The notes: a model not told the origin generated them from the letters alone. DNA of 30,337 bases from Dubosiella newyorkensis (GCF_001945605.1 NZ_MPKA01000079.1:1-30337), one strand, 5' to 3'. Counted from the stretch's first letter, positions 1,366 through 29,826 are shown. Program-made: numbers and translations.

Positions 1366-1698
1366 TTAGAAGATCACGACTAAGATCATTTTGAAGTCAT
1401 CGTCTCTTGCGTTGATGGCATGAGGGACATTGGCTGGCATGATGATCGTCTCGCCTTTTTTCACTTCGAATTCTTTACCATCGATCACGACGATCCCTTT
1501 TCCTTCTAGGCCTGTGACCATCGCGTCGCCTTTTGAAGAATGAGTCGAGATCTCTTCGCCTTGAGAAAAGGCGAATAATGTCACGCTTACCGCTTCGTTT
1601 TGGGCGAGTGTTTTTGAGGCGACTTCGCCAGGACGGACCGTGATTTCTTTGGCAAGATCGAGTAAAGCCGCTTTTTCAATATTTTTAATTTTTTCCAT
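1366..1698 (-). CDS. Cupin domain protein (110 aa)
   Basis: The track ORF 1366..1806 is trimmed to the ATG at 1698, which is preceded by AAAGGAGGAG. The sequence is MEKIKNIEK...GEEISTHSSKGDAMVTGLEGKG...GETIIMPANVPHAI, a small beta-barrel cupin pattern. Confidence 0.7.
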   Translation of the reverse strand: MEKIKNIEKAALLDLAKEITVRPGEVASKTLAQNEAVSVTLFAFSQGEEISTHSSKGDAMVTGLEGKGIVVIDGKEFEVKKGETIIMPANVPHAINARDDDFKMILVVIF

Positions 1699-1768
1699 GA
1701 ATACTCCTCCTTTAGGTTTATCTTCTTTTTTTTTATAATAGTACTGATTATGGATAAGAGGTAATGAT

Positions 1769-2341
1769 ATGCGTATTATTTCTGGTAGTGCAAGAGGAAC
1801 GAGCATTCAAGCCCCGGAAGGCTATGACACTCGCCCTGTCACGGATAAGATCAGACAATCTTTATTTAATATATGGCAATGGAAAATTCCAGGAAGCGAC
1901 TTTTTAGATGTGTTTTCAGGAAGTGGCAGCATGGGAATCGAAGCGCTTTCCCGCAACGCGCATCGAGTCGTGATGATCGAAAAGGCGCCTAAAGCCGTCA
2001 AAGTGATCCAAGAAAATATAAAAAAATGTCATTTGGAGCATTCGAATCATGAAATCTTGGCGCAAGACGCGTTCGTCGCTCTGCCTAAGCTAGCCCAAAA
2101 CAAAGAAACGTTCGACTTGATCTATTTGGATCCGCCTTATACGGTCGATTCGATCTTTATTCCGATCATGGAGCTTCTTTCTTCGCTTCCTTTATTGAAG
2201 GAAGAGGGCGAGATCGTCATTCGAACTCGAAAAGAGAAAGAAATGCCCGAACGTTTTGGAAATCTCGTCAAGTATCGAGAGAAAGTGTATGGCATTTCGA
2301 AAGCCCATTTTTATCGAAAGGAGGAGGAAAGCGATGTATAA
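1769..2341 (+). CDS. rsmD: 16S rRNA (guanine966-N2)-methyltransferase RsmD
   Basis: MRIISGSARG...TRPVTDKIRQSLFNIW...FLDVFSGSGSMGIEALSR...LDPPY. These are the canonical RsmD N-terminus, SAM-binding motif I and DPPY motif. Confidence 0.85.
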   Translation: MRIISGSARGTSIQAPEGYDTRPVTDKIRQSLFNIWQWKIPGSDFLDVFSGSGSMGIEALSRNAHRVVMIEKAPKAVKVIQENIKKCHLEHSNHEILAQDAFVALPKLAQNKETFDLIYLDPPYTVDSIFIPIMELLSSLPLLKEEGEIVIRTRKEKEMPERFGNLVKYREKVYGISKAHFYRKEEESDV

Positions 2342-3257
2342 GAAAACTTATTTTTTTAAAACATCCCCATATGATGAGACGAGATTGAGCGTTTTGATGA
2401 TCGTTCCCGATACGGTAATAGGGGTCGTACAGATCGCGCATGGCATGGTGGAACACAAAGAACGGTATCTTCCGCTCATGAAGTTTTTAGCGAAACATCA
2501 CTACGCCACGATCATCCACGACCACCGAGGACACGGCATGAGCGTGCGCTCGCAAGAAGAGCTTGGCTTTTTTAACGATGAGTCGGCTGAATATATCGTT
2601 GAAGATGTGCATGTGATCTATGAAAAGATGAAAGCTCGATTTAGCGATGTGCCTTATATTTTATTTGGTCATTCGATGGGATCGCTTGTCGTTCGCAAAT
2701 TTTTGCAGAAGTACGACGCGCTTCTCGATGGCTTGATCGTTTGTGGAGCGCCAGGCAACAATCCTTTGACGGATTTTGGCTTGCGCATCGTCGAACGGCT
2801 CGAAAAACGATTTGGAAACAACCATCGTTCCAAATTGATCGAAAAACTATCCACGGGCGCTTATGATCGCCCATTTGAGGGAAAACATAAAAATCGTTGG
2901 ATCAGCGCCAATGAAGAAAACGTGCGCGCTTTCAACGCGCATCCAAGCGACGGCTTTACGTTTACGCTCAATGGCTATAAAAATTTGTTCAAGCTCGTCA
3001 AAGACGTGTATACGCCAGGCAATTGGAGCAAAGAGAATCTCGATCTTCCGATCTTGTTCATCGCAGGGGAAGACGATCCTGTTCTTTTATCGATCGAAAA
3101 ATGGAAGGAAGCCCAATCGTTTTTGAAGATGGAAGGGTATAAAAATGTCGAGGGTGTCTTGTTCGATGGCATGCGGCATGAGATCTTGAATGAAAAGAAT
3201 AAAGAGCTCGTCTATGAGACGATCCTTCATTTTTTGGAAGGGATCTGTGGAAGATGA
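2334..3257 (+). CDS. Alpha/beta hydrolase (lysophospholipase / monoacylglycerol-lipase-like)
   Basis: I chose the ATG at 2334 (RBS GGAGGAGG upstream, overlapping the rsmD stop) rather than the track start at 2256. It carries the GHSMGS nucleophile elbow, an HDHRGHG oxyanion region and a C-terminal DGMRHEI His motif. Confidence 0.8.
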   Translation: MYKKTYFFKTSPYDETRLSVLMIVPDTVIGVVQIAHGMVEHKERYLPLMKFLAKHHYATIIHDHRGHGMSVRSQEELGFFNDESAEYIVEDVHVIYEKMKARFSDVPYILFGHSMGSLVVRKFLQKYDALLDGLIVCGAPGNNPLTDFGLRIVERLEKRFGNNHRSKLIEKLSTGAYDRPFEGKHKNRWISANEENVRAFNAHPSDGFTFTLNGYKNLFKLVKDVYTPGNWSKENLDLPILFIAGEDDPVLLSIEKWKEAQSFLKMEGYKNVEGVLFDGMRHEILNEKNKELVYETILHFLEGICGR

Positions 3258-4138
3258 GGCGAGAATGGGAAAATGGCTCGGTCACAGAAGCGATCGAAGT
3301 CACGACAAGCAAAGATTTTAAACAAGAACATCCAGAACTTTTTGATCGGACGCTTGTTGGCAAAAGCATCAGTGATATTCACTTCTGCAAAGCGAATCAT
3401 TATAAAGATATCACGTCGGGAAGTTTTGTCTTGCCGACTAAAGAAGATCCAACGAATCAAAAGATCGTTTTCGCTTTTTGTATCGCGGAAAATACTCTCT
3501 ACTTTATCGATGACCAAAACAAGATCGAGCTGCTTTTGAGCGATATGCAAAAGGAAGTGGAGTATCAGCTTACGACGCCAATGGTTTTCCTGCTCGATTT
3601 TATGCAGTTTTTGATAGCGGACGACGTATATTATTTGCAGAGATATGAAGAGCGTCTTTCGGAATTGGAGGAACAGCTCAAGCATGGGATCGCGAAAAAT
3701 CTCGACCAAAGCATCATGGGAATGCGAAAAGATCTCAATGTGCTCGGCATGTATTATGAGCAGCTTTCGGATATGGGGCAAACGCTTGAAAATGTCGTTC
3801 TCCAACAAAGAGACGCGTTAGCGAATAATTTATTGTCCTTGTATGTGACAAGAGTCAATCAGCTCTATTCGATGGTGCAGACGATCAAAGATTATGCGAG
3901 TCAGCTTTCCAATTTGGCGCAAAATATTTTATCGGCCAAGCAAAACAACATCACGACTTTTTTGACAGGGGTCACAACGATCTTTTTACCGCTCACTTTA
4001 GTGACGGGCTGGTTTGGAATGAACTTTAAATACTTGCCTTTGATCTATACAAGACAAGGGTTTATAGGGACCTGTATTTTTTGTGTGTTATGTTTAGCGC
4101 TAGAAATTTATATTTTTTCGAAGAAAAATTTATTTTAG
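3254..4138 (+). CDS. corA: CorA-family divalent cation (Mg2+/Co2+) transporter
   Basis: The GWFGMNF (GMN) signature is followed by the final TM helix. A coiled-coil cytoplasmic domain lies upstream. The start overlaps the previous stop (ATGA). Confidence 0.85.
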   Translation: MRREWENGSVTEAIEVTTSKDFKQEHPELFDRTLVGKSISDIHFCKANHYKDITSGSFVLPTKEDPTNQKIVFAFCIAENTLYFIDDQNKIELLLSDMQKEVEYQLTTPMVFLLDFMQFLIADDVYYLQRYEERLSELEEQLKHGIAKNLDQSIMGMRKDLNVLGMYYEQLSDMGQTLENVVLQQRDALANNLLSLYVTRVNQLYSMVQTIKDYASQLSNLAQNILSAKQNNITTFLTGVTTIFLPLTLVTGWFGMNFKYLPLIYTRQGFIGTCIFCVLCLALEIYIFSKKNLF

Positions 4139-22397: not shown

Positions 22398-22423
22398 CAG
22401 TTAAAATAAAGCATATAATCACG

Positions 22424-22450
22424 AACCAGTCAGAGATGGCTGGTTTTTTA
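22424..22450 (+). terminator. Probable rho-independent terminator of the oleate hydratase gene; left edge of the AT-rich island
   Basis: Stem AACCAG (22424-22429) pairs with CTGGTT (22440-22445), followed by a T-run. Confidence 0.5.
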
Positions 22451-22673
22451 TATATTGCCTTAGAGTCAATCATCCTTTTAATTGTAAACTTAGTTGAATT
22501 ATTTCTCTCTCATTTATGCGGATATAATTTTATATGTTCAGGATATGTCATTATAATTTGTCCAATTCTTAGAAAATAAATAGAACCATTGTTTAAATTA
22601 TAATTTTGTCCCAAAAAGTAGATTTATGTCTCAGATAGGAGTATTATATGATTAAAGAGGAGTGAGTGGGGCA

Positions 22674-23711
22674 ATGAAAAAGAAATCAGTGCTGAATTTA
22701 ATAAAATATCATTTTGAAAACAATGAAAAGGCTTTTAGATCCGAAGCTTATTCTATTGCTAAGGAATTTAGCCAAACAGGTAATCAGGAATTAGCACAAT
22801 ATATTATGACGTTTCTTTCGAGTTCACAGACTTGGATACCGATGGAAACCAGTCGAAAGTATGAGTTTTTAAATCAAGTCGAGGGAAATGGGGAACCATT
22901 GTTGCTTCCAGAGCTGATTATGAATGAAATTATGGGAATCGCAAATGCGGCAAATCGAAATATGGGGGTCAATAAATTTCTGTTTGAAGGAAAACCTGGT
23001 ACTGGTAAAACGGAGGCAAGCAAGCAACTGGGAAGGATATTAAATCGTCCGGTTTATAGCGTAAGTGTCGAAACTTTGATTGACAGCAAATTGGGACAAA
23101 CTTCAAAAAATATATCTAAACTTTTTAAAGAAATTAATCAATTAGTAAAGATTGAACCATCTATTGTTTTAATTGATGAAATAGATTCTTTCGTTTCGAA
23201 TCGAATGGATCAACAGGATGTCCGAGAAATGAGTCGGGTTACATCGACGATTTTAAAACAGTTTGATCAACTTGATTATCGTGCCACAATTATCGGTACG
23301 ACTAACTTACTGAAACAACTGGACAAAGCCTTAGTAAGAAGATTTGATAAAGTTGTATCGTTTGATCAGTACACCAAGCAAGATCGAATTGAGCTTGCTG
23401 AAAAATTATTAAATCGTTATTTAGCTCAGGCAAAGATTACCACAAAGAATCTGCGTTTATTCAAAAAAATATTGGATTTGAATCTTCCTGAGACGCCTGC
23501 TGAATTAAAGAATATTATTCGTACAGCGATTGCTTTCAGCGATCCTCAGGATGAATCAGATTACCTAGTTCGTTTATATAGTTTAATTACTGAACATTCT
23601 ATTCCGGATGCTCAAGCCTTAAAAGAACAAGGTTTCACTATTCGGGAATCAGAAGTATTGCTCCAAATATCGAGGAGCACGATCAATCGTGAATTAAGGA
23701 GGGGACAATGA
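22674..23711 (+). CDS. AAA+ ATPase (classical AAA clade) with C-terminal helix-turn-helix; IetA-like partner of the downstream S8 protease
   Basis: Walker A GKPGTGKT (22989-23012), Walker B IVLIDEID (23163-23186), sensor-1 GTTN and an RRFD arginine-finger region are present. The C-terminus GFTIRESEVLLQISRSTINRELRRG looks like a resolvase-type HTH. The ATG at 22674 follows AGAGGAG; the GTG at 22662 is the alternative start. Confidence 0.85.
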   Translation: MKKKSVLNLIKYHFENNEKAFRSEAYSIAKEFSQTGNQELAQYIMTFLSSSQTWIPMETSRKYEFLNQVEGNGEPLLLPELIMNEIMGIANAANRNMGVNKFLFEGKPGTGKTEASKQLGRILNRPVYSVSVETLIDSKLGQTSKNISKLFKEINQLVKIEPSIVLIDEIDSFVSNRMDQQDVREMSRVTSTILKQFDQLDYRATIIGTTNLLKQLDKALVRRFDKVVSFDQYTKQDRIELAEKLLNRYLAQAKITTKNLRLFKKILDLNLPETPAELKNIIRTAIAFSDPQDESDYLVRLYSLITEHSIPDAQALKEQGFTIRESEVLLQISRSTINRELRRGQ

Positions 23712-25951
23712 ACAATGTTTTTGAATTACGAGGAGAGATGAATTCAAGCAAACCTAAAAAGAACCGGCCTGTCCCACAGTTGAAAGGGCTGAAAATAGAA
23801 GTGGATACGATTCGAAAGTTTAGAAATCAACTTGAAGAGATCAAACAATTCTGGGAATCGGAAAAATATCTTGATGGTGCGTTGGTAAGTATCCACTATA
23901 AACGAGTGATCCCTAAATCAAGTCGGGTCAATCGTATCCTAGGTACAAAATCGAAGCCAAGTTCTAAATTTATATGTGGAGCAAAATATGATGGGTTTGA
24001 TGAAAATAATATTGGTAAGGCTCATATTATTACCTATTATATTTCGATCGAACAATTAACTGATACGATTCAGCTTTTGAAATTTTTGGAAAATATAACA
24101 GCTACTCGATTTGAAGATACTGCTACCGAAAAAAAGGTTCGTGAGTTAAAACCTTTTTTTAAACAGAATGTTTACAGTTATTCGGAAGTTGTGCAAGGCT
24201 TAGTGGACTTAAAGGAAATTGAAACTTTTTCTATAGAAAAAGAATCTATCAATGAAAATGGGAATCATATGATTTCGTTTTATAAAACATCAACCAATCT
24301 TGATTGCTTATTTGAAAAACTGCATATTGATCCCTTGAATATTGAAAAGATCGACGAACAGACTTACGTGTTTTCAAAGCATGATATGTCTGTCATTTTA
24401 CAAGAAGTTCCTTATCTTGTTTCTATGGGCTTGCAAGATCTAAATGAAGTTTGTCCAATCCAGTTTCAGATTTCGAAACCGCTCTATGAGCTAAAAGAAA
24501 TACCTGATCCAAAGGATGAACCTGTTATTGGAGTCATTGATATGCATTTTAAAAAGGGCTCCACTTATTTAGATAAATGGGTCGATTATAAACGCGTGAC
24601 TTCTGATGAGATTGAATTAGAGGATAACGATTACGAACATGGGACGCGGGTGAGTTCCATTATCGTGGATGGGCCAAGTTTAAATCCTCATTTAGATGAT
24701 CATTGTGGTCGTTTTCGCGTTCGTCATTTCGGTATAGGAGCAAGTGGAAAATTAAATAATTCGACGGCTTTGAAACAGATTCGTGACATTATAGAAGATA
24801 ATCTTGATATTAAAGTTTGGAATATTTCGCTAGGTTCAGAATTTGAAGTCTCTCGAAATTATATGTCTGTTCAAGGGGCTTTGCTTGATGAATTGCAGTT
24901 TAAATATGATATTTTGATTATCGTTGCAGGAACGAATAAACCAGAAAAAATTGGGAATGAATCTTATCGTATTGGCAGTCCAGCAGATTCTCTTAATTCG
25001 ATCGTAGTCAACTCGGTGTCTTTAAAAAAAGAGGTGCCTTCTTATGCGCGTAAAGGTCCTGTGCTTTCTTTTTTTATAAAACCTGATGTTTCTTATTATG
25101 GAGGAACAGTTGAAGAGCCCATTCAGGTTGTGACTGCTTCTGGAGATATTACGCAAACGAGGGGTACGAGTTATGCTGCTCCTTGGATTGCCCGAAAAGC
25201 TTCTTATCTGATTGATAAAATGGGTATTTCTCGCGAAGTGGCCAAAGCATTGCTGATCGATAGTGCTGCCGGTTGGGGCAACCAGCAGAAATTTGATGTA
25301 GGTTATGGAGTTGTTCCAGTCTCTATTGATGATGTACTTCAATCAAAAGATAATGAAATTCGATTCGTAATGAGTGGAAAAATGAGAAATACTGAAATCT
25401 ATACACATCGTCTTCCAGTAAATTTGATTGATGGAAAGCATCCATTTAAAGCAAAAGTTACGATGACCTATTTTCCAAAATGCGACAGATATAGTGGCGT
25501 TGATTATTCTTGTACAGAACTTGATGTCCATTTTGGAAGAGTGTATGAGGATAAAAAAGGCAGTTTTCAAATTAAATCAATCGATGCCAATCATCAAGGA
25601 GATGATGGGATTCATGTGTGTTATGAGAAGACGGCCCGAAAAACGTTTCGGAAATGGGATAATGTGAAGCATCTTGAGGAAAAAGTCAATGAAAGATCAA
25701 AAGATGTGAAAGCGATGACTGAGAAAGGGTTCTGGGGCATTAAAATCAATGAAAAAGAAAGACAGGATGAAAAATATGGAGAAGATATTGATTTTGGATT
25801 GGTCATTACTCTCAAAGAAATACATGATGAAAACCGCTATACAGATTTTATCAACCGGTGCATTGCTCATGGATGGATCGTGAATGAAATCAATATTGAA
25901 AACAGAACAGCGATTTACAATGTTGCGGAAGAAGAAATCGAATGGGATTAA
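23708..25951 (+). CDS. Intracellular subtilisin-like serine protease (peptidase S8) with unassigned N- and C-terminal domains; IetS-like
   Basis: The ATG overlaps the ATPase stop (ATGA at 23708-23711) and RBS AAGGAGGGG lies upstream. The triad is in D-H-S order: VIGVIDMH (Asp codon 24539-24541), EHGTRVSS (His 24638-24640) and GTSYAAPW (Ser 25169-25171), with the oxyanion Asn in WNISLG. No signal peptide or TM segment is present. Confidence 0.85.
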   Translation: MNNVFELRGEMNSSKPKKNRPVPQLKGLKIEVDTIRKFRNQLEEIKQFWESEKYLDGALVSIHYKRVIPKSSRVNRILGTKSKPSSKFICGAKYDGFDENNIGKAHIITYYISIEQLTDTIQLLKFLENITATRFEDTATEKKVRELKPFFKQNVYSYSEVVQGLVDLKEIETFSIEKESINENGNHMISFYKTSTNLDCLFEKLHIDPLNIEKIDEQTYVFSKHDMSVILQEVPYLVSMGLQDLNEVCPIQFQISKPLYELKEIPDPKDEPVIGVIDMHFKKGSTYLDKWVDYKRVTSDEIELEDNDYEHGTRVSSIIVDGPSLNPHLDDHCGRFRVRHFGIGASGKLNNSTALKQIRDIIEDNLDIKVWNISLGSEFEVSRNYMSVQGALLDELQFKYDILIIVAGTNKPEKIGNESYRIGSPADSLNSIVVNSVSLKKEVPSYARKGPVLSFFIKPDVSYYGGTVEEPIQVVTASGDITQTRGTSYAAPWIARKASYLIDKMGISREVAKALLIDSAAGWGNQQKFDVGYGVVPVSIDDVLQSKDNEIRFVMSGKMRNTEIYTHRLPVNLIDGKHPFKAKVTMTYFPKCDRYSGVDYSCTELDVHFGRVYEDKKGSFQIKSIDANHQGDDGIHVCYEKTARKTFRKWDNVKHLEEKVNERSKDVKAMTEKGFWGIKINEKERQDEKYGEDIDFGLVITLKEIHDENRYTDFINRCIAHGWIVNEINIENRTAIYNVAEEEIEWD

Positions 25952-26063: not shown

Positions 26064-27719
26064 ATGAAGATAAAAAAGATAGAATTGATTAATTTTAAAC
26101 GATTTACGCATTTAATTGTTGAAAAAATACCTGAGACGGCTAAAATGATAATTTTAGTGGGACCTAATGGCTCTGGAAAAACATCTTTTATGGAGGCACT
26201 AAATCATTATTATAAGTATACTGGATATTATGATATTGGAGATTATCATTATCTCAGTAAAATAGGTAATGAGGAGGAGCTCAACCATGATCAATGGTTT
26301 AAACGTGCATCAAAACTAGTGGATATTGACTTTCATGATATAACCCCTCCCAAAACTATTGGCAACAGTAGCGATATAAAAGGCCATTTTTATTTTCGGA
26401 GTGCATATAGAAATGAACCTGATTTTCAAATAAGTTCTATGCAAAGACAACCAGATCCTACTGAATCAATACGATTAAAAACACTTAACCAAAATGATCA
26501 AACGGTTTCTGCAAACTATCAAAGATTAGTAGCCACTACTATCTCGAGTGTATATAATGTTGAAAATGATTCAAAATCTGTTGCTACTTTACGTGAAGAA
26601 TTAACTGGAAAAATTTGTGTTGCTATTGAACACGTATTTGAGGATTTGGAGTTTTCATCTCTCGGTGAGCCTCTTAAAAATGGTAACTTCTATTTCACAA
26701 AAGGAAGTACAAAAAATTTTAACTATTGCAACCTTTCTGCTGGGGAAAAATCAGTCTTCGATTTAATTTTAGACATGGTTGTTCAATCGGAGTATTATCC
26801 AGATGCTATTTACTGTATTGATGAACCAGAGACTCATTTGCATACCAAATTACAGGGAAACGTTCTACGAGAACTGTATTTTCTTATTCCAGGAAATTCA
26901 CAGCTCTGGATTTCGACTCATTCAATTGGAATGCTACAAGAAGCAGAAGAAATTGAGAAAAAAAATCCAGGTACTGTTGTTTTTTTGGACTTTGGTGAAC
27001 GAGATTTTGACACAGATCAAGTAATTTATCCAACAAAAATTGGGAAAGCAGTATTGGAAAAGTTTTACGAACTTGCTTTCGGCGATTTTGCGAAGTTAAT
27101 GTTGCCTCGAACAATCATTTTTTGTGAAGGAGATTCAAATGGAAAAAAACGAAAGAATTTTGACAAGACGATTTATTCGACTATTTTTGCCAATACTCAT
27201 CCGGATGCATTTTTTATCTCTGGCGGTTCTTGTAATGATATAGAAAAGATTGAGAACACGCATGGAGAAATAATTAGTACACTTCTTAAAAATACTCGAG
27301 TCATTAAAATCGTAGATCGAGATAATCGCAGTGATCAAGAAATTATTGATCTCAAAAAAAAGGGGATTAGGGTCTTGAAAGAGCGAAATCTCGAATCCTA
27401 TTTGCTTGATGATACTGTAATCAAGAAATTATGTGATTCAGTTGGAAAAAGCGAAGAATATAGCGAATGTATTCGAGAAAAGAATTGTGCCCTTGTCGCT
27501 TCTATAGATAGAGGAAATGCTTTAGATGATTATAAATCAGCTAGTGGAGATATTTATAATTCGTTAAAAAAGCGACTTGCTCTTACAAAATGCGGAAACA
27601 GCGCGGATAGCTTTATTCGTGATACTCTTAGTCCATTGATTACACCTGATATGGATATTTATAAAAAACTAGAAGAAGAGATTTTTGGTAAAATGGGCGA
27701 AGAAGAAAATGACGAATAG
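26064..27719 (+). CDS. ABC-type (AAA_15/AAA_21-like) ATPase fused to a DUF4435/TOPRIM-like nuclease domain (OLD-family / merged PARIS AriA-AriB-like)
   Basis: The N-terminus MKIKKIELINFKRF and Walker A GPNGSGKT (26160-26183) are present, with signature-like LSAGEKS, Walker B IYCIDEPE (26808-26831) and H-loop ISTHS. The C-terminal domain follows with IIFCEGDS (Glu codon 27126-27128), GGSCNDI, IVDRDNR (27315-27323) and NLESYLL. Confidence 0.8.
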   Translation: MKIKKIELINFKRFTHLIVEKIPETAKMIILVGPNGSGKTSFMEALNHYYKYTGYYDIGDYHYLSKIGNEEELNHDQWFKRASKLVDIDFHDITPPKTIGNSSDIKGHFYFRSAYRNEPDFQISSMQRQPDPTESIRLKTLNQNDQTVSANYQRLVATTISSVYNVENDSKSVATLREELTGKICVAIEHVFEDLEFSSLGEPLKNGNFYFTKGSTKNFNYCNLSAGEKSVFDLILDMVVQSEYYPDAIYCIDEPETHLHTKLQGNVLRELYFLIPGNSQLWISTHSIGMLQEAEEIEKKNPGTVVFLDFGERDFDTDQVIYPTKIGKAVLEKFYELAFGDFAKLMLPRTIIFCEGDSNGKKRKNFDKTIYSTIFANTHPDAFFISGGSCNDIEKIENTHGEIISTLLKNTRVIKIVDRDNRSDQEIIDLKKKGIRVLKERNLESYLLDDTVIKKLCDSVGKSEEYSECIREKNCALVASIDRGNALDDYKSASGDIYNSLKKRLALTKCGNSADSFIRDTLSPLITPDMDIYKKLEEEIFGKMGEEENDE

Positions 27720-27914
27720 AAAAATGAAGATAGAATCGATCAATATTATCGCTTAAAATGTTATGTTATTTCAAATAAGGCTAACTAAGGCTATTGATGA
27801 AAACAAACCGGAGAACAATCAACTATGAATTTCTAAAATTGATGGTATGTCAAGCTAAAATACAATCTAAATTTCTATTTTTTACAAATTGGAAGATTTT
27901 GTTTCGCTTTCCAT

Positions 27915-28250
27915 TGACTACGGGTCCTCATCTCTAAGAATCCATTTTTTGTTGATTTTCAGACTCCCAGCTTTTGCTGCGGTTTGAAAAGCTCCTAGCT
28001 TATCTTAGGGATCCTCATCGTCAAAGCCGCTTCCTAGTTTTATCTGAACGCAACGTTTTCAATATCTTGTAGTTGTTCTCATATTCCATCGAGGATTCGT
28101 ATCCGTAATGAAATGGATACGAATCCTATTATAGAATTCTTCTGTATATTTGAATATAGCTTTCTTTGCTTCTTTCATGATCGAATAGACGTATTTATAG
28201 TGCCATTAGGTTTCTAGCTGGTGGAGGATTTGATGAATTAATATTTGTGA
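27915..28250 (-). pseudogene. Decayed IS3-family transposase (OrfB C-terminus) remnant with possible terminal repeat
   Basis: The minus-strand reading gives ...ILHQLET*WHYKYVYSIMKEAKKAIFKYTEEFYNRIRIHFITDTNPRWNMRTTTRY*. This resembles the IS3 integrase C-terminal motif (...EEA..AIFEYIE.FYNR.R.HS.LGY.SP) but carries in-frame stops. A possible end TGACTACGGGTCC lies at 27915-27927. Confidence 0.45.
28092..28127. repeat. Perfect 13-bp inverted repeat (hairpin) inside the IS3 remnant
   Basis: AGGATTCGTATCC (28092-28104) and GGATACGAATCCT (28115-28127) flank a 10-nt loop. No T-run follows on either strand. Confidence 0.8.
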
Positions 28251-28456
28251 TTAGTATAGCTTTTTAAGTTATAAGGTAAATGCCAGAATGTTTGTTCCTT
28301 AAATTCTTTGTCATATTACTTTTCCATTTTTCATTTCTCCTTATTATAGAGATCAAGTTATGCTTTTTATAATGTTTTACTCCTTTAGTTTTCAGAGGTT
28401 TAAGCGACACAGTAATAATACTAGACTCACAGGTAGTGAGATTCCGCTTTTTATTT

Positions 28457-28501
28457 GGGTAACCAAATAACTAAGGGGGGATTCTCGAAATATTTTGGGT
28501 T
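28457..28501 (+). repeat. Direct repeat copy 1 (upstream of the TA module)
   Basis: GGGTAACCAAATAACTAAGGGGGGATTCTCGAAATATTTTGGGTT. The first 14 nt are identical to 29378-29391. Overall identity to copy 2 is roughly 80 percent with one indel. Confidence 0.8.
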
Positions 28502-28678
28502 ATTTTCATATTGGAGATAATGTTTATGAACAGATTTTAAATAAGTATATTACGTTTGGTATATAAAATCTTATATGAAATGAATTTATATCAGTAGATT
28601 AGCTGATAAATTTGGGAATAATAGTTTAGATAAAATAAGGTTTTTGGTATACTTATCTGTAATAAAAGGAGTTATTTT

Positions 28679-29002
28679 ATGAATGATCTATCGAACATAA
28701 TTAATAAAACGGTTTCTATTTCTATATTTAATCGTGGTCGTGCTGGTCAAGTCTTCTCGGATGTAAAAAAACGCGGATCGTTGGTTGTTCTAAAAAATAA
28801 TGAACCTGAATGTGTTCTTTTATCTCCAAAAGAATATGTTTCTTTAATGGATGAGTTGAATGATATGAGATTAGAACTTCTTGCGACACAAAGGATGCAC
28901 AATACAGATTTATCGGCTACTATTCCTGCTGAAGATGTTTACAAGAATCTTGGAATTGATCTCAATGATCTAGAATGTTTTGATGAGGTAGAACTAGATT
29001 GA
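28679..29002 (+). CDS. Type II antitoxin, Phd/YefM family
   Basis: ISIFNRGRAGQVFSDVKKRGSLVVLKNNEPECVLLSPKEYVSLMDELNDMRLELLA is a Phd/YefM-type N-terminal fold. RBS AAAGGAG lies upstream. The stop overlaps the toxin start. Confidence 0.8.
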   Translation: MNDLSNIINKTVSISIFNRGRAGQVFSDVKKRGSLVVLKNNEPECVLLSPKEYVSLMDELNDMRLELLATQRMHNTDLSATIPAEDVYKNLGIDLNDLECFDEVELD

Positions 29003-29328
29003 GCTGGAATGTAAAGTTTTTACCTGAAGCACAAGATGATTTGTTTTCTCTTGACAAGAGTCAGCAGAAGCTTGTCGTTAAAGCAATTCAAAAAGTAAAA
29101 CAGAATCCGCTTTCTTCTCGAGAAGGAGGCTATGGTAAACCTCTGGGCAATAAACGAGCCAATAAACTTTCTGGTTTTTTGAAGATCAAACTTCGCTCTG
29201 CAGGTATTCGTGTGGTTTATCAACCTATTAAGACAGAATCAGAAATGTTAATCATCATTATCGGAGTTAGGGAAGATAATGAAGTTTATGAAGTTGCTGG
29301 CAAAAGAATTAAAAAGCATAAATTATAG
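28999..29328 (+). CDS. Type II toxin, RelE/ParE (RelE/StbE-like) family
   Basis: The TTG start overlaps the antitoxin stop (TTGA). WNVKFLPEAQDDLFSLDKSQQKLVVKAIQKVKQNP...LSGFLKIKLRSAGIRVVYQ...MLIIIIGVREDNEVY is the canonical RelE/ParE pattern. Confidence 0.8.
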   Translation: MSWNVKFLPEAQDDLFSLDKSQQKLVVKAIQKVKQNPLSSREGGYGKPLGNKRANKLSGFLKIKLRSAGIRVVYQPIKTESEMLIIIIGVREDNEVYEVAGKRIKKHKL

Positions 29329-29479: not shown

Positions 29480-29826
29480 TCAATTTTGTTTGAAAGATAC
29501 TGAAGGATCTTTTCTCTCTGCCCAAAGAATGAGATTGCGTATATAATCGAAATTGGAAGTTCCTCTAGCATTCTTTTTGTAGTCTTTGGGTTTTCTGTTG
29601 AATGATTCCATAGGGCCGTTCGAGAGCCGTGCATAGTAGGTTTCAAGATCCTTTGATCCTTTTCTTGAAACTTCGGCTACTGTAAAAGAAAGTGCGATTT
29701 CTTTTTTGTGGGCTTTCAAGAACTGTGCGAATTCGACGAAGACCTGCTGATCGGATTATTTGTATTTTTGGATCAGGGCTTCGGGTGTTCTAGAGGCTTC
29801 CTCTGTTGTTGGATAAAAAACGTGTC
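29480..29826 (-). pseudogene. Truncated ISL3-family transposase (C-terminal fragment with in-frame stop)
   Basis: The minus-strand reading gives ...TTEEASRTPEALIQKYK*SDQQVFVEFAQFLKAHKKEIALSF...YYARLSNGPMESFNRKPKDYKKNARGTSNFDYIRNLILWA. This matches the ISL3 C-terminal signature (SNGP.EG.N.KIK..KR...G..NF...R.RIL). About 115 codons remain, with a TAA inside. Confidence 0.6.

Follow-up and report, generated by a model that had tools for sequence, protein, structure and literature searches.

IetAS systems, in which an AAA+ ATPase (IetA) is paired with a subtilisin-like S8 protease (IetS), were reportedly described as an anti-phage defence system by Gao et al. in 2020. Such a pair, ietA and ietS, is encoded by the much-studied mouse-gut commensal Dubosiella newyorkensis on the 30,337-nucleotide (nt) stretch NZ_MPKA01000079.1:1-30337 (GCF_001945605.1), the whole of which is called the window here. 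The family was first described as a stability and incompatibility determinant of the plasmid pTiC58 and is cited from there as a plasmid-stabilising toxin-antitoxin (TA) pair (Yamamoto et al. 2009, cited in PMC13069673 and PMC6755753). As cited, the Agrobacterium pTiC58 pair consists of an AAA-ATPase antitoxin and a subtilisin-like toxin on mobile DNA and follows an addiction logic. In contrast to this plasmid copy, the one in the window belongs to a chromosomal island, and the matches of Agrobacterium plasmids to the window IetS cover part of the protein only, at ~23% identity.

The closest experimentally characterised relative that could be established is the Mycoplasma pair TA132/133, which was aligned only via its Mesomycoplasma hyorhinis homologue and not via the tested proteins of M. 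mycoides, M. bovis and M. gallisepticum. The protease of this pair (353 + 757 amino acids, aa) is reported to be toxic in expression assays and the ATPase to neutralise it, with the same toxicity and neutralisation for homologues from M. feriruminatoris, M. bovis and M. gallisepticum; M. hyorhinis is listed there with a TA132/3 homologue (PMC8562856). Transposon and deletion analysis of JCVI-syn cells is reported to show that loss of the ATPase is lethal unless the protease goes with it (PMC6755753). The window pair has the same gene order, overlapping genes and similar sizes (345 + 747 aa), in a gut Erysipelotrichaceae host rather than in Mollicutes. The M. hyorhinis pair, which adjoins type III restriction-modification methylase genes, aligns to it over the full length with 43% (IetA) and 37% (IetS) identity, and through this homologue the window pair is placed by alignment in the same clade as TA132/133.

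Two further systems connect the family to phage infection. According to a preprint, IetAS of Bacillus cereus m1293 acts by abortive infection, its toxicity being triggered by YosG of SPbeta (bioRxiv 10.1101/2022.08.27.505566), and in the Escherichia coli variant ietHAS, which has an added helicase, protease activity is reported to be required and a mutated ietA to be unclonable (PMC13069673). Like the window pair, the anti-phage types (NF042959/NF042956, m1293 and ietHAS) are two-gene AAA+/S8 operons with a cytoplasmic protease and the same domain order; the window pair has no associated helicase, unlike ietHAS. An earlier annotation made from the sequence alone (the sequence-only reading) had stated that trigger, substrate and mechanism of IetAS were not worked out, which is too broad given the abortive infection and YosG trigger reported for m1293 and a TA nature on record since 2009, but is right for the biochemical mechanism. 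A literature search for a structural, biochemical or mechanistic paper on IetAS found none.

Against this background, ietAS of Dubosiella is very probably an IetAS-family, TA-like abortive-infection and addiction cassette, in which IetS would be the lethal effector and IetA its ATP-dependent brake, to be lifted by infection or by loss of the cassette. Specifically, IetA would be made just ahead of IetS, from the same mRNA and through a coupled ATGA junction, and would act as a single-ring-type AAA+ ATPase that uses ATP to hold harmless a cytoplasmic subtilase that is lethal when unrestrained. A phage protein, another effect of infection or loss of the cassette would disturb IetA and free IetS, which may then cleave cellular and/or phage proteins, so that growth would halt before phage progeny leave. 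The same logic of brake and killer would make the cassette addictive and thereby stabilise the island. Family membership, intact catalytic sites, cytoplasmic location, obligate synteny and a mobile, defence-rich context come from the present analysis. The assignment of toxin to the protease and antitoxin to the ATPase, abortive infection, a phage trigger and the need for protease activity would be carried over from the experiments on relatives.

IetA is matched by the PADLOC IetA profiles PDLC02196 (3.9e-39) and PDLC04232 (1.1e-32; aa 3-287 against profile positions 4-298 of 330), and IetS by PDLC02197 at near full length (4e-71; aa 167-734 against positions 156-747 of 749); the only specific NCBIfam matches are IteA_antiphage (NF042959) and IteS_antiphage (NF042956). 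The two Pfam domains whose search the sequence-only reading had proposed are also found, AAA (PF00004) at 4.5e-26 in aa 103-231 of IetA and Peptidase_S8 (PF00082) at 4.2e-29 in aa 270-534 of IetS. The pair is colinear end to end with annotated iteA/iteS of Acidovorax and Dongshaea plasmids, and motifs beyond the catalytic cores are common to both, namely AKSxR, KW..VK and a helix-turn-helix (HTH)-like motif at the C-terminus of IetA. Compared with the proteobacterial proteins, the clade of the window pair has extra N-terminal segments in IetS, a GRFRVRHF insertion in the S8 domain, and a pore-loop Lys in IetA instead of Leu/Tyr. The features by which IetAS is recognised are present together: operon order, the IetA profile, the near-full-length IetS profile, and intact ATPase and triad/oxyanion residues. 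On account of the profile matches, the full-length colinearity, the shared non-catalytic motifs and equivalog scores below the cut-off (given further below), the window pair is, as judged from sequence, a divergent clade of the IetAS family, distant from the proteobacterial equivalog type; the sequence-only reading had proposed just such a divergent Iet-like system.

Since the existing PADLOC profiles match strongly, standard defence annotation should recognise the locus. The NCBI annotation of clade members is merely 'S8 family peptidase' and 'ATP-binding protein', and the value of the assignment lies in a bridge between annotations: the 'S8 peptidase/ATP-binding protein' pairs of gut Bacillota are IetAS, and are the same kill-switch module as Mycoplasma TA132/133. 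The window copy is an ordinary member of a very large known clade with tested TA pairs and brings no new principle.

The size of this Bacillota/Mollicutes clade is seen from a homologue search (E <= 1e-5), in which 8,000 candidates were scored and at least 6,693 clusters of IetS homologues found; the best 120 clusters are full length (~740-750 aa) with 42-47% identity, bar a few Dubosiella-like ones at 86-99%. A survey with one genome per species gave 590 stretches encoding an IetS relative, and the best 80 of these 590 loci were examined. An IetA homologue (46-54% identity) ends within ~15 nt of the IetS start in 78 of the 80, and the two loci without an upstream IetA are accounted for by a contig end and a truncated gene. 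IetA-IetS synteny, which the sequence-only reading had proposed to compare across genomes, is obligate in the clade; around the examined loci no sporulation or secretion context, the housekeeping settings named in that reading, was seen. Chance adjacency of the two genes was considered and rejected, the pair and its motifs being far more than chance would give.

The hosts are mostly gut and anaerobic Bacillota, with Listeria, Enterococcus and Megasphaera among the others, and the spread is patchy and takes in many phyla. Full-length pairs with 41-45% identity also occur in metagenome-assembled genomes (MAGs) labelled Bacteroides, Fusobacteriaceae, Treponemataceae, Alphaproteobacteria/'proteobacterium' and Methanobrevibacter, and two of these MAG loci share identical pair coordinates (1474-3747). 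The similar identities (~42-45%) across hosts point to horizontal spread or, for some MAGs, to binning error. Clade copies are found on plasmids of C. perfringens, Macrococcus and others, including mobilizable and conjugative ones, and a Robinsoniella/Roseburia-type MAG has the cassette as a minimal insertion, with pta-ackA on one side and secA on the other. IetS homologues with 40-51% identity are also present on two unannotated human-faecal contigs deposited as 'Bacteriophage sp.' (MT838181.1 and MT836124.1), and more distant S8 peptidases in E. coli phage vB_EcoS-683R6 and Enterobacter phage phiT5282H, which points to carriage of some IetS-like genes by phages or prophages.

Both reading frames were confirmed where the sequence-only reading had placed them, and the same goes for the ATGA overlap (23708-23711), each of the AAA+ motifs, the S8 triad and the oxyanion Asn. 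A strong Shine-Dalgarno sequence of ietS, AAGGAGG (23696-23702), lies 5 nt ahead of the ietS start codon, still within the 3′ end of ietA. The ribosome-binding site (RBS) of ietA, AAAGAGGAG at 22654-22662, is 11 nt 5′ of ATG 22674, which is most likely the start codon; GTG 22662 was rejected as a start because it would overlap the RBS and because the IetA homologues all begin with MKKK. Alignment with the DNA of Dubosiella muris is good only from ~22598 to the ietA ATG (~75 bp), the DNA farther upstream being unrelated, so that the cassette appears to move as a unit with a short leader. This conserved block holds TTTTGTCyCAAAAA, GTATTATATGA and the RBS. The sole match to a consensus promoter, TTTATA-17-TATAAT (22529-22557), is just outside it and no better than shuffled controls.

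IetS has the complete catalytic apparatus of a subtilase: Asp278 (GAT, 24539-41), His311 (CAT, 24638-40), Ser488 (AGT, 25169-71) and the oxyanion Asn372 in WNISLG, all four being invariant in 68 IetS homologues and against proteobacterial IteS. Neither a signal peptide nor a transmembrane (TM) segment is present, the N-terminus being hydrophilic and the maximal Kyte-Doolittle 19-residue mean 1.0; the same absence is seen throughout the 68 homologues (19-residue mean <=1.44), and IetA likewise has no hydrophobic segment fitting a signal peptide or membrane helix. The protease is accordingly predicted from its sequence to be cytoplasmic, as the sequence-only reading had held, and its identity as a secreted subtilase was rejected for want of a signal peptide or membrane anchor in IetS or any of these homologues.

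The AlphaFold2 (AF2) model of IetS (mean predicted local distance difference test, pLDDT, 82.7; predicted template modelling score, pTM, 0.87) divides the protein into five parts, the linker after the propeptide-like domain being counted (Table 1). In the N-terminal domain N2, L7, G9, K70, S71 and R73 are invariant in the 68 homologues, so that the extreme N-terminus is itself conserved, and the AKSxR motif (K70, S71, R73) is also invariant against proteobacterial IteS. The top Foldseek matches of the model are pro-forms, ProN-Tk-SP (3afg, 606 aligned columns) and unprocessed pro-subtilisin E (3whi), the latter with a TM-score of 0.69 over 355 residues versus ~0.72 over 275 for mature subtilisins; these whole-model numbers suggest that aa 170-245 may superpose on the subtilisin propeptide. 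Subtilases with C-terminal beta domains (KP-43, 1wmd, and Tk-SP, 3afg) are among the top fold matches as well. Tk-SP, KP-43 and pro-subtilisin E share with IetS a propeptide-like unit, an S8 core and a C-terminal beta-sandwich, but they are secreted, have 16-17% identity and no partner ATPase, whereas IetS has an additional N-terminal domain of ~165 aa and no signal peptide.

The only poorly predicted stretch of the C-terminal region is aa 630-649 (pLDDT <50), flanked on both sides by well-predicted strands. It runs into RKWDNVK (aa 648-654), the most conserved motif of the IetS family: E640, R644, R648, K649, W650, D651, N652 and K654 are invariant in the 68 homologues, K649, W650, V653 and K654 are common to proteobacterial IteS, and an automatic pick of the two most conserved IetS stretches included [YF]RKWDN[VI]K. 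Searched alone against Pfam, the N- and C-terminal parts of IetS gave nothing meaningful. A sequence search of the Protein Data Bank returned no solved IetA or IetS, the matches being generic subtilisins and Cdc48/VAT-type ATPases.

IetA, which is 100% identical to a D. newyorkensis protein, carries Walker A GKPGTGKT (aa 106, nt 22989), Walker B IVLIDEID (aa 164), sensor-1 TTN (aa 209) and RRFD (aa 222), and K112 of Walker A, D168/E169 of Walker B, N211 of sensor-1 and R222/R223 are invariant in an alignment of 56 IetA homologues. The AF2 model (pLDDT 86) has five parts, namely a helix bundle, a linker, one AAA+ module, a lid domain and a C-terminal three-helix unit, and by fold it best matches spastin, Vps4, proteasomal Rpt, FtsH-like proteins and Msp1. 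The layout of bundle, linker and single AAA module would resemble Vps4/CdvC; the bundle has conserved residues (Y12, N17, F21, E24, Y26, A29, F32, G36, Y43), and the N-terminal part searched alone against Pfam had no meaningful match.

Pore loop 1 of IetA is non-canonical. In the pore loop of processive unfoldases an aromatic residue grips the substrate and is needed for threading. IetA has S138-K139-L140-G141 (23085-23096) at this place, with K139 opposite the Trp of the K-W-V-G pore loop in an ungapped HMMER alignment to VAT D2, and does not show the aromatic-hydrophobic-Gly pattern of threading proteases (the Lon/FtsH/proteasome logic). K139 is invariant in the clade of the window pair, where proteobacterial IteA has Leu or Tyr, and this Lys argues, at the level of sequence, against a standard threading unfoldase.

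The C-terminal three-helix unit of IetA (pLDDT 90-95) has the invariant residues F321, R324, E325, S335 and R339, and an equivalent HTH-like motif is found in proteobacterial IteA. The predicted fold suggests that the module may bind DNA, and by analogy with type II antitoxins it might autoregulate the operon. No mention of this tail was found in the available passages of the IetAS literature. As for an operator, no convincing palindrome was found upstream of ietA; AT-rich inverted and direct repeats are present there, and conservation of the upstream DNA with D. muris is confined to the proximal ~75 bp.

As to how IetA would restrain IetS, the preferred guess is that it binds or remodels the N-terminal or propeptide-like region of IetS, or the RKWDN loop, and this is favoured over processive unfolding because of the pore-loop Lys, the Vps4-like N-domain and the conserved, exposed IetS motifs. 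A more detailed version is unlikely as a whole: a non-threading IetA, with its pore-loop Lys, Vps4-like N-bundle and C-terminal HTH, would be bound to DNA or to its own operator and hold a zymogen-like IetS clamped via the N-terminal or propeptide-like region or the RKWDN loop, until a phage protein frees the self-maturing protease. If true, zymogen activation would be coupled to an AAA+ switch in a way that is new for immunity. AKSxR, RKWDN, the propeptide-like domain, the pore-loop Lys and the HTH-like tail of IetA are targets for mutagenesis, and the questions for the family are the substrate of IetS, the hold of IetA on IetS and the release by a phage protein.

The sequence-only reading had given IetA the opposite role, that of an ATPase which recognises or unfolds a target or the IetS propeptide and thereby switches proteolysis on, as in two-component machines of the Lon/FtsH/proteasome type, so that the ATPase would be needed for killing. 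Such licensing would suit the classical AAA+ clade to which IetA belongs, whose members (spastin, Vps4, Rpt, FtsH-like proteins and Msp1) feed proteases or extract proteins, as well as the propeptide-like domain beside the catalytic domain, which could serve as a removable inhibitor, and the translational coupling, which suggests a stoichiometric complex. It is nevertheless quite improbable: in TA132/133, of the same clade, the protease alone kills, the ATPase rescues and loss of the ATPase only is lethal, a mutated ietA of E. coli ietHAS could not be cloned, and the aromatic residue for processive threading is replaced by an invariant Lys. Because of the TA132/133 genetics and the unclonable ietA mutant, IetA is read as a brake, and the direction proposed earlier is probably reversed; the two could be combined if IetA were a brake in the resting state and, once triggering has occurred, a helper.

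At about 22400 the GC content drops from 44% to 34% and the density of GATC from 15.5 to 5.8 per kb, in agreement with the AT-rich, GATC-poorer island noted in the sequence-only reading, and the genes of the island have a lower GC content at third codon positions (GC3, 0.21-0.30) than the MCRA/oleate hydratase gene upstream (0.55). The MCRA gene is closed by a terminator-like hairpin (22423-22446), which marks the end of this core gene. Directly 3′ of ietS is a gene whose product has an AriA-type ABC/SMC-like ATPase and an AriB module (DUF4435, TOPRIM-like) in one chain, a fused AriAB, and it is followed by a Phd/ParE-type TA module and insertion sequence (IS) debris; the ATPase-TOPRIM gene, TA module and IS debris of the sequence-only reading thus received names. 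D. muris (NZ_SRYG01000010.1, 4409-12038) has the same cassette (IetS 87%, IetA 90% identity) at another locus, with an AAA_21 ATPase and a weak RiboL-PSP-HEPN-like protein upstream and a 568-aa AbiGii-like protein (PADLOC 1.2e-09) downstream. No link between AriAB and IetAS is seen in other genomes; D. muris has the AbiGii-like gene at that place. ietAS sits in a horizontally acquired, mobile, defence-rich low-GC island, and recognition of IetAS, PARIS and Phd/ParE together in D. newyorkensis is of value for its annotation.

Across the clade, 146 flanking ORFs were scanned against PADLOC and Pfam, and UvrD/GajB-like, ResIII, Eco57I-type, WYL, AAA_21, recombinase and DUF3892 families were found. 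With regard to the enrichment of defence genes next to the pair, which the sequence-only reading had proposed to examine, this context has a defence- and mobile-element-flavoured character, but the neighbours are heterogeneous and the scan yields per-family counts without a statistic. A gene of ~90 aa with DUF3892, divergent (minus strand) and ~300 bp upstream of ietA, makes up 10 of the 146 flanking ORFs. The window lacks this gene; where present, it may regulate the cassette or serve as an optional third part of it.

A pure addiction module, which would stabilise the island or a plasmid by post-segregational killing and have no phage-defence role in its host, is a very improbable account of the locus. 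It has in its favour the reported origin of IetAS as a pTiC58 stability and incompatibility determinant, the clade members on mobilizable and conjugative plasmids, the copies that are minimal insertions between housekeeping genes (pta-ackA/secA), and Mycoplasma work in which TA behaviour only is described. Yet the cassette directly adjoins defence genes, AriAB in the window and the AAA_21/HEPN-like pair and AbiGii-like gene in D. muris, has ResIII, UvrD/GajB-like, Eco57I-type and WYL neighbours elsewhere, and belongs to a family of which two other systems are reported to protect against phages experimentally; in addition, the roles in addiction and defence are compatible and not mutually exclusive. 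That an ordinary housekeeping or secreted subtilase merely lies beside an unrelated ATPase, as the usual secretion of S8 peptidases and the generic NCBI names might suggest, is effectively refuted by the 68 IetS members, none of which has a signal peptide or TM segment, the obligate IetA synteny, the low-GC island location with patchy taxonomic spread, and the specific IetA/IetS profile matches.

Several points weigh against the abortive-infection and addiction cassette itself. The NCBIfam scores, 106.6 against a cut-off of 510 (IteA) and 180.2 against 900 bits (IteS), are far below the equivalog range, and identity with proteobacterial IteA/IteS is only 21-23%; as a consequence, the anti-phage phenotype is transferred by family and not by orthology. 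The phage-defence data come from m1293 IetAS and ietHAS, which may belong to other clades of the family (a tblastn search of plasmids with the 61-aa N-terminus of m1293 IetA gave no match), and the Mycoplasma experiments are reported for TA behaviour, not phage defence (PMC6755753, PMC8562856). Toxicity, neutralisation and phage defence would accordingly all be carried over to the Dubosiella locus from relatives, and a 2026 paper states that the anti-phage mechanism and the mode of neutralisation by IetA are still unknown (PMC13069673). The HTH assignment of IetA, finally, combines a predicted structure with a weak Pfam match (HTH_38, 0.0086) below the gathering score.

Table 1. Features of the ietAS locus and of the neighbouring island in the window (nucleotide positions counted from the first letter of the window).
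Feature	Position	Strand	Description	Basis
5′ leader and probable promoter region	22598-22673	+		Block aligned with D. muris ietAS upstream DNA
ietA	22674-23711	+	345-aa classical-clade AAA+ ATPase, predicted antitoxin	
IetA N-terminal bundle	22689-22817	+	Three-helix bundle aa 6-48, then disordered linker aa 51-60	AF2 secondary structure and pLDDT
IetA AAA+ core	22968-23366	+	aa 99-231	Pfam AAA and pore-loop alignment
IetA C-terminal module	23610-23702	+	Three-helix HTH-like module aa 313-343	AF2 helices 313-318, 323-330, 334-343
ietS	23708-25951	+	747-aa predicted cytoplasmic S8 subtilase, predicted toxin/effector	
IetS N-terminal domain	23708-24202	+	Alpha/beta domain aa 1-165, no Pfam match	AF2
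IetS propeptide-like domain	24215-24442	+	Alpha/beta domain aa 170-245, then low-confidence linker aa 246-268	AF2 beta-beta-alpha-beta-alpha-beta
IetS S8 catalytic domain	24515-25309	+	aa 270-534 (AF2 S8 core aa 269-540)	Pfam and motifs D278, H311, N372, S488
IetS C-terminal region	25340-25948	+	Beta-sandwich region aa 545-747	AF2
Fused AriAB	26064-27719	+	One-gene PARIS, 551 aa	PADLOC AriAB 2.4e-32; Pfam AAA_15, AAA_21, DUF4435
Phd/ParE pair	28679-29328	+	Phd/YefM-type antitoxin (107 aa) and ParE-type toxin (109 aa), 4-nt overlap	Weak Pfam matches
IS debris	28059-28178 and 29480-29719	-	ISL3 transposase C-terminal fragment and 39-aa ORF	

Of the smaller neighbours, the Phd/YefM-type protein is just below its gathering score (28.7 vs 29.8 bits) and the ParE-type protein just above (25.5 vs 23). 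The ISL3 fragment has 79 aa and matches positions 180-239 of 240 of the Pfam profile DDE_Tnp_ISL3 (4.9e-07), and the 39-aa ORF resembles, by eye, the tail of an IS3-family OrfB. The gap between AriAB and the TA module (27720-28678) has no ORF >48 aa and no Rfam match, and an Rfam scan of the island gave no match either. IetS recurs with identical sequence on 19 contigs; two NCBI MAG assemblies among these have the gene order of the window. The public contigs carrying the island stop ~350 bp past the ParE gene.

A side observation concerns the core part of the window (1-22400), in which GATC is ~4.1-fold over-represented (347 observed versus 84 expected from base composition), compared with 1.9-fold in the island (46 versus 24). 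This strong and unusual enrichment may relate to the methylation or mismatch-repair biology of Dubosiella.

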